The position numbers and the translations under genes were made by a program. Positions 5,876 to 61,095 of a DNA stretch of 64,000 nucleotides are shown piece after piece; positions within the stretch are counted from its first letter, which is position 1, and each line of letters starts with the position of its first letter. The DNA is from Escherichia coli (GTDB lineage: Bacteria > Pseudomonadota > Gammaproteobacteria > Enterobacterales > Enterobacteriaceae), in assembly GCF_024223415.1 (NCBI RefSeq), contig NZ_CP100500.1; one strand, written 5' to 3'. Below the pieces are notes generated by a model. The model was not told where the DNA came from and ran no database searches. It saw only the letters and a program-made list of their open reading frames with translations.

Positions 5876-5951
5876 TGGCTCCTCTGACTGGACTCGAACC
5901 AGTGACATACGGATTAACAGTCCGCCGTTCTACCGACTGAACTACAGAGGA
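5876..5951 (-). tRNA. asnT: tRNA-Asn (GTT)
   Basis: Reverse complement reads TCCTCTGTAGTTCAGTCGGTAGAACGGCGGACTGTTAATCCG...GAGGAGCCA with cloverleaf and CCA end. Confidence 0.9.
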
Positions 5952-6942: not shown

Positions 6943-7032
6943 GGAGAGATGCCGGAGCGGCTGAACGGACCGGTCTCGAAAACCGGAGTAGGGGCAACTC
7001 TACCGGGGGTTCAAATCCCCCTCTCTCCGCCA
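6943..7032 (+). tRNA. serU: tRNA-Ser (CGA)
   Basis: GGAGAGATGCCGGAGCGGCTGAACGGACCGGTCTCGAAAACCGG...CTCTCCGCCA, long variable arm, anticodon CGA. Confidence 0.9.
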
Positions 7033-15980: not shown

Positions 15981-16005
15981 AAAAAAAAGCCGGCATCATG
16001 CCGGC
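15981..16005 (-). terminator. Hairpin GCCGGCAT-C-ATGCCGGC with 8-nt T-run on the minus strand; possible terminator of an RseX-like sRNA
   Basis: Strong GC stem followed by TTTTTTTT on the minus strand in the yedS-yedR intergenic region, with no protein gene upstream on that strand. Confidence 0.45.
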
Positions 16006-16235
16006 CCAAAAAATATAAACAAGACGATAAAAGGCTAATAACGGGGTTATCATGACACAGAAATCAAAAAAGGTATAATTGAATTCGGTGCTAATATATT
16101 GTTTAGGTGAATTAATAAAACCATTACCATAGATAATAATAAATCTTTATTGCTGTTTTTCCGGTAATTATTGCCATTGCGCAAAAATTATCTATTTGTT
16201 CAAAAAATGATTGAGTCTTGACTGGCTCATCCAAT

Positions 16236-16640: not shown

Positions 16641-17336
16641 ATGGACGTACAACACTGGCAGGCACAGTTCGAAAACTGGTTGAAAAACCATCACCAGCAC
16701 CAGGACGCGGCCCATGACGTGTGTCATTTTCGCCGCGTCTGGGCTACGGCACAGAAGCTGGCGGCAGATGACGATGTCGATATGCTGGTGATTTTAACCG
16801 CCTGTTATTTTCACGATATTGTGAGCCTGGCGAAAAATCATCCACAACGGCAGCGTTCTTCAATCCTGGCGGCAGAAGAGACGCGTCGCCTGCTCCGTGA
16901 AGAGTTCGTGCAATTTCCGGCGGAGAAAATCGAGGCCGTTTGTCATGCCATTGCCGCTCACAGTTTCAGCGCGCAAATCGCCCCCTTAACAACGGAAGCT
17001 AAAATCGTCCAGGATGCGGATCGGCTGGAAGCCCTGGGGGCGATTGGCCTGGCGCGCGTCTTTGCTGTTTCAGGGGCATTGGGCGTGGCGCTGTTTGATG
17101 GCGAAGATCCGTTCGCACAGCATCGCCCGCTGGATGATAAACGCTACGCGCTGGATCATTTCCAGACTAAGTTGCTGAAGCTACCGCAAACCATGCAAAC
17201 CGCAAGAGGCAAGCAGCTGGCGCAGCACAACGCGCAATTTTTAGTCGAGTTTATGGAGAAGCTCAGTGCCGAACTGGCGGGGGAGAATGAAGGTGTCGAT
17301 CACAAGGTGATAGATGCGTTTTCACCCGCGGGATAA
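16641..17336 (+). CDS. yedJ: HD-domain phosphohydrolase YedJ (231 aa)
   Basis: [38 protein letters not shown]..., HD motif (YFHDIV). Confidence 0.85.
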
Positions 17337-17402
17337 GCGCGTGGCCCTAAATGGCTGTAATTATGTTAACCTGTCGGCCATCTCAGATGGCCGGTTAAAT
17401 CT

Positions 17403-18821
17403 ATGCAGGAAAATATATCAGTAACCGATTCATACAGCACCGGGAATGCCGCACAGGCAATGCTGGAGAAACTGCTGCAAATTTATGATGTTAAAACGCT
17501 GGTGGCGCAGCTTAATGGTGTGGGTGAGAATCACTGGAGCGCGGCAATTTTAAAACGTGCGCTGGCGAATGACTCGGCATGGCACCGTTTAAGTGAGAAA
17601 GAGTTCGCCCATCTGCAAACGTTGTTACCCAAACCACCGGCACATCATCCGCATTATGCGTTTCGCTTTATCGATCTATTTGCCGGAATTGGCGGCATCC
17701 GTCGCGGTTTTGAATTGATTGGCGGACAATGCGTGTTTACCAGCGAATGGAACAAACATGCGGTACGCACTTATAAAGCCAACCATTATTGCGATCCGGC
17801 GACGCATCATTTTAATGAAGATATCCGCGATATCACCCTCAGCCATAAAGAAGGCGTGAGTGATGAGGCGGCGGCGGAACATATTCGTCAACACATTCCT
17901 GAACACGATGTTTTACTGGCCGGTTTCCCTTGTCAGCCATTTTCGCTGGCTGGCGTATCGAAAAAGAACTCGCTCGGGCGGGCGCACGGTTTTGCCTGCG
18001 ATACCCAGGGCACGCTGTTTTTTGATGTGGTACGCATTATCGACGCGCGTCGTCCGGCGATGTTTGTGCTCGAAAACGTCAAAAACCTGAAAAGTCACGA
18101 CCAGGGTAAAACGTTCCGCATCATCATGCAGACGCTGGACGAACTGGGCTATGACGTGGCTGATGCAGAAGATAACGGGCCGGACGATCCGAAAATCATC
18201 GATGGTAAACATTTTCTGCCGCAGCACCGTGAACGCATCGTGCTGGTGGGTTTTCGTCGCGATCTTAATCTGAAAGCCGATTTTACTCTGCGTGATATCA
18301 GCGAATGTTTCCCTGCACAGCGAGTGACGCTGGCGCAGCTGTTGGACCCGATGGTCGAGGCGAAATATATCCTGACGCCGGTGCTGTGGAAGTACCTCTA
18401 TCGATATGCGAAAAAACATCAGGCGCGCGGTAACGGCTTCGGTTATGGAATGGTTTATCCGAACAATCCGCAAAGCGTCACGCGTACGCTGTCTGCGCGT
18501 TATTACAAAGATGGCGCGGAAATTTTAATCGATCGCGGCTGGGATATGGCCACGGGTGAGAAAGATTTTGACGATCCGCTGAATCAGCAACATCGTCCAC
18601 GTCGGTTAACGCCTCGGGAATGCGCGCGCTTAATGGGTTTTGAAGCGCCGGGAGAAGCGAAATTCCGCATTCCGGTTTCGGACACTCAGGCCTATCGCCA
18701 GTTCGGTAACTCGGTGGTCGTGCCGGTCTTTGCCGCGCTGGCAAAACTGCTTGAGCCAAAAATCAAACAGGCGGTGGCGTTGCGTCAGCAAGAGGCACAA
18801 CATGGCCGACGTTCACGATAA
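17403..18821 (+). CDS. dcm: DNA-cytosine C5 methyltransferase Dcm (472 aa)
   Basis: [12 protein letters not shown] (motif I), GFPCQPFS (motif IV), ENV, QFGNSV motifs. Confidence 0.95.
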
Positions 18822-19272
18822 GGCCACTCGCAGCAAAAATATGCGCGCGATTGCCACGCGTGATACGGCGATTGAGAAGCGCCTCGCCAGTCTGTTAACC
18901 GGGCAGGGCCTGGCGTTTCGCGTTCAGGACGCCAGTCTGCCCGGAAGCCCGGATTTTGTCGTTGATGAATATCGCTGCGTGATATTTACCCATGGCTGCT
19001 TCTGGCATCATCATCACTGCTATCTGTTTAAAGTGCCTGCGACTCGAACCGAGTTCTGGCTGGAGAAGATAGGTAAAAATGTTGAACGCGATCGCCGCGA
19101 TATCAGTCGTTTGCAGGAACTCGGCTGGCGCGTACTGATTGTCTGGGAGTGTGCATTACGTGGGCGCGAGAAGCTGACGGATGAAGCGCTTACCGAGCGT
19201 CTGGAAGAGTGGATCTGCGGCGAAGGTGCCAGCGCGCAGATCGACACGCAGGGGATTCATTTACTCGCTTGA
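18802..19272 (+). CDS. vsr: Very-short-patch repair endonuclease Vsr (156 aa)
   Basis: [32 protein letters not shown]...; start lies inside the dcm 3' end (20-nt overlap, different frame). Confidence 0.9.
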
Positions 19273-20181
19273 TGCGTCCTGAATAACTGGCGCAACTAAG
19301 GGTTTTGCCGGGAAGAGATATTTTCCCAACGTGACCAGTACCACCGCGAAGACAATTACGCCGAGCGCCAGCCATTCAATCTTCGACAGCGTCTCTCCGC
19401 CCAGTCCCGTACCCAGCAAGACCGCGACCACCGGGTTAACGTAGGCGTAGCTGGTGGCGAGAGCCGGACTGACATTACGGATTAAATACATATAAGCGTT
19501 GATGGCGATAATCGAACCAAACAGCGCCAGATAGCCGACCGCAAGGAAGCCTGAAAGGGAAGGGAGCGCCGTCAGTTTTTCACCTGCAATCATCGACGCG
19601 ATCATTAACACCACGCCTGCCGCCAGCATCTCAATCGCACCCGCCATCATCCCTACAGGTAAGGTAATGCGCGAGCCATAAACCGAGCCAAACGCCCAGC
19701 TAATCGAGCCGATTAAAATCAGAATCGCGCCCCACGGATTGCCGCTTAAATTTCCACCGCTATTGAGCATGATGATTCCGGCAAGCCCAATGGCAATACC
19801 CACCCATTCCAGTTTGCGCGTTTTAATGCCAAACAGGCGGCTGAAGCACAGGGTAAAGAGGGGCACGGTTGCAACCACTACGGCGGCGATGCCGGAAGGA
19901 ACATTTTGATGTTCGGCAACCGTCACCATGCCATTACCGACAGCCAGCAATAATAGGCCAATCAGCGCGGCATTAAGCAGCGGACGTAGCGGGGGGAGTT
20001 TGTGTCCGCGCAGTAGCAAAAATGCCAGCAATAAAATACCGGCTGCCAGGAATCGCACGCCTGCCATCATTAACGGAGGCCAGCTTTCCACGCCAATCCG
20101 AATGACAAAATAGGTTGAGCCCCAAATGATATACAACGCAAACAGCGCGCCAAAAAGCGGTAACAACTGGCGGAAACGCAT
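19261..20181 (-). CDS. yedA: EamA/DMT-family transporter YedA (306 aa)
   Basis: MRFRQLLPLFGALFALYIIWGSTYFVIRIGV..., 10-TM DMT signature. Confidence 0.85.
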   Translation of the reverse strand: MRFRQLLPLFGALFALYIIWGSTYFVIRIGVESWPPLMMAGVRFLAAGILLLAFLLLRGHKLPPLRPLLNAALIGLLLLAVGNGMVTVAEHQNVPSGIAAVVVATVPLFTLCFSRLFGIKTRKLEWVGIAIGLAGIIMLNSGGNLSGNPWGAILILIGSISWAFGSVYGSRITLPVGMMAGAIEMLAAGVVLMIASMIAGEKLTALPSLSGFLAVGYLALFGSIIAINAYMYLIRNVSPALATSYAYVNPVVAVLLGTGLGGETLSKIEWLALGVIVFAVVLVTLGKYLFPAKPLVAPVIQDASSE

Positions 20182-24405: not shown

Positions 24406-24492
24406 AACACATCAGATTTCCTGGTGTAACGAATTTTTTAAGTGCTTCTTGCTTAAGCAAGTTTCATCCCGACCCCCTCAGGGTCGGGATTT
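24406..24492 (+). ncRNA. dsrA: DsrA small regulatory RNA (87 nt)
   Basis: AACACATCAGATTTCCTGGTGTAACGAATTTTTTAAGTGCTTCTTGCTTAAGCAAGTTTCATCCCGACCCCCTCAGGGTCGGGATTT, matches DsrA including the terminator. Confidence 0.95.
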
Positions 24493-60792: not shown

Positions 60793-60868
<76 letters not shown>

Positions 60869-60922
60869 GTTTAAAAGACATCGGCCTCAAGCGGATGTCT
60901 GGCTGAAAGGCCTGAAGAATTT

Positions 60923-60996
60923 GGCGCGTTAACAAAGCGGTTATGTAGCGGATTGCAAATCCGTCTAGTCCGGTTCGACTCCGGAACGCGCCTCCA
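60923..60996 (+). tRNA. cysT: tRNA-Cys (GCA)
   Basis: GGCGCGTTAACAAAGCGGTTATGTAGCGGATTGCAAATCCGTCTAGTCCGGTTCGACTCCGGAACGCGCCTCCA. Confidence 0.95.
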
Positions 60997-61008
60997 CTTT
61001 CTTCCCGA

Positions 61009-61095
61009 GCCCGGATGGTGGAATCGGTAGACACAAGGGATTTAAAATCCCTCGGCGTTCGCGCTGTGCGGGTTCAAGTCCCGCTCCGGGTACCA
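61009..61095 (+). tRNA. leuZ: tRNA-Leu (TAA)
   Basis: GCCCGGATGGTGGAATCGGTAGACACAAGGGATTTAAAATCCCTCGGCGTTCGCGCTGTGCGGGTTCAAGTCCCGCTCCGGGTACCA. Confidence 0.95.

Follow-up and report, generated by a model that had tools for sequence, protein, structure and literature searches.

The overlapping dcm-vsr gene junction of a non-K-12 Escherichia coli chromosome and the translation start of the Vsr endonuclease

The segment described here is very probably the chromosomal dcm-vsr operon junction of a non-K-12 E. coli strain, at which synthesis of the repair endonuclease Vsr would be tied to that of the methyltransferase Dcm, and the longer, 210-aa frame that runs through vsr would not be translated as Vsr. 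The window, i.e., the whole stretch of DNA that was analyzed, comprises 64,000 nucleotides, and all coordinates below refer to it unless K-12 or another locus is named. The features that matter for the junction are the following.

17403 to 18821, + strand: dcm, gene of the CCWGG DNA-cytosine C5-methyltransferase (472 aa; ATG start, TAA stop at 18819-18821)
18640 to 18801, + strand: upstream extension of the vsr frame (54 codons), with TTG codons at 18640, 18730 and 18751; it corresponds to the +1 frame of dcm
18790 to 18795, + strand: Shine-Dalgarno (SD)-like element AAGAGG within dcm codons, with a 6-nt spacing to the vsr ATG
18802 to 19272, + strand: vsr, gene of the very-short-patch repair T:G mismatch endonuclease (156 aa; ATG 18802-18804, TGA 19270-19272)
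18802 to 18821, + strand: dcm/vsr overlap of 20 nt, containing vsr codons 1-6 and 2 nt of codon 7
18841 to 18843, + strand: Met14 codon, the second in-frame ATG of vsr, 20 nt past the dcm stop; disfavoured as a start

The preliminary description had placed the vsr ATG at 18802, 20 nt inside dcm and in a different frame, which can be read directly from the sequence and agrees with the overlap of the K-12 RefSeq annotation. The frame of vsr is +1 relative to that of dcm (17403 mod 3 = 0; 18802 mod 3 = 1). The overlap is made up of 17 nt of dcm sense sequence and the stop codon; it touches seven dcm codons, corresponding to the tail H-G-R-R-S-R-stop, and the dcm TAA is embedded in codons 6 and 7 of vsr (GAT AAG). 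It had also been noted that the ORF track swallows vsr into a longer frame, and this is reproduced in the ORF listing: because the nearest in-frame stop upstream is the TAA at 18631, a 210-aa ORF (18640..19272) beginning at a TTG is reported.

Several observations concern the surroundings of the two genes. At the other end of vsr, the last 12 nt (19261-19272) are shared with the 3′ end of the convergent yedA (- strand, 19261..20181), an arrangement also present in K-12, and nothing resembling an intrinsic terminator was found between vsr and yedA. Upstream of dcm, positions 17375-17394 hold a perfect inverted repeat that is rich in GC (CGGCCATCT/AGATGGCCG) and whose last base precedes the dcm ATG (17403) by 9 nt. 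It occupies the spot where an SD would be expected for dcm, and no obvious one is present there; the repeat may make initiation at dcm structured and weak, or may mark the place where the yedJ transcript ends. Elsewhere in the window, matches above the Rfam gathering threshold correspond to the small RNAs DsrA and rseX and to five tRNA genes, three of which are clustered at 60.8-61.1 kb (match coordinates 24406-24492, +; 15982-16071, -; 5879-5951, -; 6943-7029, +; 60793-61092, +). These matches are ordinary E. coli chromosomal context.

The identities of dcm and vsr, proposed initially from the sequence, are corroborated by both family profiles and the K-12 annotation. In Pfam profile searches Dcm matched PF00145 (258.5 bits, E 1.4e-76) as well as PF18284, with the methylase domain stopping at residue 448 of 472, and it scored 948 bits against the NCBIfam profile NF007772 (DNA cytosine methylase), for which the cut-off is 710. 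Vsr scored 133.6 bits against PF03852 (cut-off 27), positions 1-73 of the profile being aligned to residues 2-74, and 181.3 bits against TIGR00632 (cut-off 97.85), whose positions 1-119 correspond to residues 1-118, such that the full profile is covered. By these curated cut-offs, both proteins are members of their respective families. Residues 2-156 of Vsr match chain A of PDB 1CW0 with 154 of 155 residues identical, and comparison with K-12 b1960 gives 155 identical residues out of 156, the sole change being R49S, with 9 nt differences in vsr. Vsr is thus near-identical, catalytic core included, to the E. coli enzyme that has been characterized biochemically and structurally. Dcm has 470 of 472 residues in common with K-12 b1961, with 17 nt differences in dcm.

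The K-12 dcm-vsr operon (b1961-b1960), which is said to have been described by Sohail et al. in 1990 and by Dar and Bhagwat in 1993, has the same two genes, the same 20-nt overlap in the +1 frame and the same junction. In the RefSeq annotation of MG1655, vsr occupies 2030448..2030918 and dcm 2030899..2032317, which gives the same overlap, and the alignment with K-12 that had been suggested as a check shows an 80-nt dcm/vsr junction identical to that of the window. The neighbors are also the same, in the order drpB-yedJ-dcm-vsr with yedA convergent, and the differences from K-12 are purely allelic (S105L and V446L in dcm; R49S in vsr). The junction reported here is therefore already known, a textbook feature identical to that of K-12, and its confirmation adds nothing new.

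The locus is also widespread in the species. A megablast search with positions 17300-19300 found dcm-vsr in 5367 of 5426 complete E. coli genomes; the best matches had 99.8-99.9% identity, with the annotated order yedJ, dcm, vsr, yedA, and the 60-nt junction was 100% identical in 3320 of the 5367. As judged from these comparisons of sequence and annotation, the junction is an orthologous annotated feature and not a chance pattern. Two plasmid-borne copies were found among the matches, and the region was unmatched in 59 of the 5426 genomes; strains of the E. coli B lineage are known to lack dcm. The Ser49 allele of Vsr (codon 18946-18948), two residues ahead of Asp51, is rare: K-12 has Arg at this position, the 80 related species have Arg (76), Lys (3) or Thr (1), and an exact copy of the 60-mer around codon 49 is present in 138 of the 5367 E. 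coli genomes.

Where translation of vsr begins is of practical relevance, as the ORF listing and the annotation differ by 54 codons. The ATG at 18802 is very probably the real start, a conclusion supported by five lines of evidence that agree. When the 210-aa translation was scanned, its first 55 residues were devoid of family-profile coverage, position 1 of the Pfam Vsr profile falling on residue 2 and position 1 of TIGR00632 on residue 1 of the 156-aa protein. The full-length Vsr chain that was crystallized with DNA (PDB 1CW0_A, 155 residues) begins with ADVHDK, i.e., at Ala2, in line with the annotated Met1. For comparison with relatives, one genome per species was scanned, which yielded 80 Enterobacteriaceae loci whose Vsr proteins have 75-97% identity. 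The codon homologous to ATG 18802 is ATG in 73 of the 80 species and GTG in three, and in the remaining four (Superficieibacter, Raoultella) a GTG one codon downstream is used as the start instead; each of the 80 vsr genes has its own, conserved start codon. Function points the same way: removal of the first 14 residues of Vsr diminishes both endonuclease and repair activity and abolishes stimulation by MutL (PMC2715241), which argues that the N-terminus encoded from 18802 is functional.

The same comparison bears on the idea that the true start lies upstream, at TTG 18640, 18730 or 18751, which would give a protein of up to 210 aa. In this strain the frame is open from 18634 and contains these three TTG codons, as such a start would require. 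However, none of the three is preceded by an SD, the extension does not align to any family profile, and the frame is closed in many relatives. Salmonella arizonae and diarizonae (loci L012 and L013) have an in-frame stop 3 nt upstream of the start, E. albertii (L004) has one at 27 nt and two divergent E. coli at 84 nt; the distance is 12-63 nt in many others, within a range of 12-87 nt for many species. The variable distances of these stops indicate that the extension is not a conserved coding sequence. Furthermore, in 29 of the 80 species the upstream part of the frame is devoid of ATG, GTG and TTG codons. An upstream start is effectively refuted by this comparative evidence, and its likelihood is put close to nil. 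The earlier suggestion that the first start of the 210-aa frame goes unused is thus upheld by the profiles, by 1CW0, by the K-12 annotation and by the 80-species comparison. In annotation, the ORF of 210 aa is best cut back to 156 aa.

The open upstream frame could in principle serve in another manner, through a +1 ribosomal frameshift within 18802-18818 that would produce a Dcm-Vsr fusion. The geometry would allow it: relative to dcm, vsr is shifted into the +1 frame, and E. coli has 171 nt of open vsr frame upstream. However, the sequence CAT GGC CGA CGT TCA CGA TAA contains no slippery or prfB-like motif, vsr keeps its own start codon in every one of the 80 species, and stand-alone vsr genes exist. 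Purified Vsr has its native size, of about 18 kDa, and this also counts against a fusion. The comparative evidence, together with the missing slippery motif, effectively excludes frameshifting, to which hardly any credence can be given.

With vsr starting at 18802, the overlap itself can be followed across the family. It is kept in 56 of the 80 other species, with a length of 20 nt in 50 of them, 17 nt in four and 35 nt in two, so that with the window 57 overlapping loci are available, to be set against 24 non-overlapping ones; the latter comprise seven species in which dcm is present without overlap and 17 without an adjacent dcm. Among the 57 overlapping loci, the N-terminal octapeptide of Vsr has eight variants, with MADVHDKA accounting for 35 loci, and the C-terminal 12-mer of Dcm has 40. 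Given this difference, and the fact that the methylase domain ends at residue 448, the shared nucleotides are constrained by Vsr, and the Dcm tail is a tolerated by-product. The length variants have simple origins: where codon 6 of vsr is GAC, dcm extends to a 35-nt overlap (Siccibacter), and where the preceding codons are CAT AAC, the overlap is 17 nt. The purine-rich GAG core of the SD is nearly invariant (G51 and A52 at 90% or more in the alignment). Among the loci with a dcm but no overlap, in four Buttiauxella species (L051, L054, L057 and L064) the dcm gene ends some 0.9-1 kb ahead of vsr, with an insertion between the two genes, and in Buttiauxella sp. B2, Enterobacter sp. Ag1 and Cedecea colo (L069, L074, L077) it stops just before vsr. 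The existence of such loci means that the overlap is common but not obligatory.

The functional relationship between the two enzymes provides the context of this arrangement. Dcm methylates the inner C of CCWGG, and Vsr would act where this 5-methylcytosine has deaminated, nicking the resulting T:G mismatches, in the CTWGG context, on the 5′ side of the T. Both proteins would be made from one mRNA, co-transcription being taken from the literature. As the dcm stop follows the vsr AUG at a distance of 17 nt, a ribosome that terminates dcm translation would sit on the vsr initiation region, and Vsr production would in this manner be tied to that of Dcm. The route is presumed to be either local re-initiation or the passage of a ribosome that keeps the site unfolded. 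The geometry of a coupled pair is indeed present, with co-directional genes and the vsr ATG inside the 3′ end of dcm in another frame, and this arrangement is conserved among relatives (56 of 80 species) without being universal. A scan for consensus sigma-70-like sites on the + strand inside dcm gave none, such scans being weak.

Efficient translation of vsr reportedly needs translation of dcm, an observation attributed to Dar and Bhagwat. One article states that vsr is co-transcribed with dcm (PMC12907096), and a further article describes dcm as partially overlapping vsr and states that the nonsense allele dcm-6, at codon 45, abolishes vsr activity too (PMC4444293, citing Dar & Bhagwat 1993). 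Part of the polarity of dcm-6 could be transcriptional and Rho-dependent, rather than reflecting translational coupling.

Alternatively, Vsr might be translated independently from its own AAGAGG, in which case the overlap would be mere compact packing. That element is SD-like and correctly spaced, and its predicted duplex with the 3′ end of 16S rRNA has a moderate energy of -5.8 kcal/mol. In addition, at least 24 of the 80 related species have a vsr that does not overlap dcm, including 17 in which no dcm is adjacent; these stand-alone genes imply that independent initiation is possible as a contribution. On the other hand, the loss of vsr activity in the dcm-6 mutant, as reported in the article cited above, is at odds with a self-sufficient start. 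Moreover, the SDs are significantly weaker where the overlap is present: their duplexes average -5.6 kcal/mol in overlapping loci and -7.4 kcal/mol in the class without dcm, a difference confounded by phylogeny and GC content, and they are also weaker than in all 24 non-overlapping loci together (Mann-Whitney p = 0.001), with the same confounding by phylogeny and GC. Weaker SDs in the overlapping loci would fit a reliance on coupling.

Start-site profiling, which the preliminary description had proposed as a check, speaks to the same question. In the INRI-seq data, zero peaks were recorded at the annotated starts of vsr (2030918, minus strand) and dcm in five in vitro replicates, and the in vivo Ribo-RET dataset of Meydan et al., listed in the same table, has no peak at either start (PMC9825163 Table S2). 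Of the annotated starts, about 70% were picked up by INRI-seq and about 18% by Ribo-RET. No vsr entry was found in the TRAINSPOTTER N-terminomics supplements. The start is thus neither confirmed nor refuted by profiling, with no peak at vsr or at dcm. That the isolated vsr region gave no INRI-seq peak, in an assay with this detection rate, counts against independent initiation, and the missing peak would fit a start site that is poor on its own. Overall, translation of vsr without any coupling to dcm is considered unlikely.

The loci at which vsr does stand alone have features of their own. In 17 of the 80 species, among them Kosakonia, Phytobacter, Pseudescherichia vulneris, K. oxytoca and K. 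spallanzanii, an intact vsr (75-85% amino acid identity) is found beside yedA, with no dcm homologue up to 2.5 kb upstream.

About 2501 to 2970 in each locus: stand-alone vsr (L025, L026, L033, L037, L038, L043, L046, L047, L060-L062, L066, L067, L070, L076, L082)

The gene order at most of these loci is yedJ-vsr-yedA; upstream of vsr there is a GntR-like gene in K. oxytoca and a divergent porin gene in P. vulneris. In Klebsiella indica (L034, 2353-2505), a dcm remnant of 51 aa abuts vsr, which suggests loss or deletion of dcm rather than gain.

As to how coupling to dcm translation might operate, RNA structure was considered as well. The single-sequence minimum free energy (MFE) fold has a hairpin that encloses the vsr SD, the AUG and the dcm stop (z = -2.05), and between -30 and +15 the MFE is -11.9 kcal/mol in overlapping loci compared with -7.0 kcal/mol in stand-alone ones, a difference that would fit a reliance on coupling but is confounded by coding GC content and phylogeny. 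A hairpin sequestering the SD and AUG was not recovered by RNAalifold with the 57 sequences, however: the percentage paired was 72.4, as against 72.3 in shuffles, and compensatory changes occurred at columns 35/84 only. Accessibility of the SD-AUG region in a 100-nt context also did not differ between overlapping and stand-alone loci (p = 0.21). Since the junction hairpin has neither RNAalifold nor covariation backing, the version of coupling that proceeds through unfolding is unsupported.

Re-initiation might also take place downstream of the dcm stop, such that part of the Vsr pool would start at Met14 (ATG 18841) and form a shortened, less active proteoform. This ATG is the nearest AUG past the dcm stop and has an A-rich tract ahead of it, Met14 shows no variation in 81 of 81 sequences, and a Vsr engineered without 14 residues is stable and able to bind MutL (PMC2715241). 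The 24 loci without dcm overlap show the same invariance of Met14, however, which indicates that its conservation is at the protein level and independent of the dcm stop; a literature search for a structural role of Met14 found none. Furthermore, no SD is present within 5-10 nt of this codon, and no profiling peak has been reported there. Such a start is most improbable. It is similarly doubtful in the extreme that ribosomes at the dcm UAA choose between re-initiation 17 nt upstream (AUG1) and 20 nt downstream (AUG14), giving rise to full-length Vsr together with a form that lacks 13 residues. Growth-phase control of Vsr activity is known, Vsr reportedly accumulating in stationary phase, and the ratio between two such forms could add to this control. 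A comparable engineered truncation, Vsr-Δ14, is less active and unstimulated by MutL (PMC2715241).

Coupling of vsr to dcm from the ATG at 18802 can be compared with other systems. Coupled operon pairs such as trpE/trpD and trpB/trpA have ATGA or TGATG overlaps, the usual lengths being 1 or 4 nt. The dcm-vsr pair resembles them in that its genes are co-directional and on one mRNA, with a start beside the upstream stop and a modest embedded SD. It differs from them by its overlap of 20 nt, rather than 1 or 4 nt, as a result of which the terminating ribosome would have to re-engage a start located 17 nt behind the stop. The other end of the range is represented by stand-alone vsr genes, such as vsrA of Caulobacter, which is unlinked to its methylase (PMC12907096), and the enterobacterial yedJ-vsr-yedA loci. 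They encode the same intact Vsr family endonuclease but, unlike the window, do not overlap a methylase gene, and the enterobacterial ones have stronger SDs.

The persistence of vsr with a stronger ribosome-binding site where no dcm is adjacent may be of interest for the field of 5-methylcytosine repair and for the cost of Vsr without its methylase. Where the overlap is kept, it would link the amount of a repair endonuclease to the methylase whose product makes the mutagenic lesion, and dcm-vsr is in this respect a classic case of genome organization serving functional linkage.
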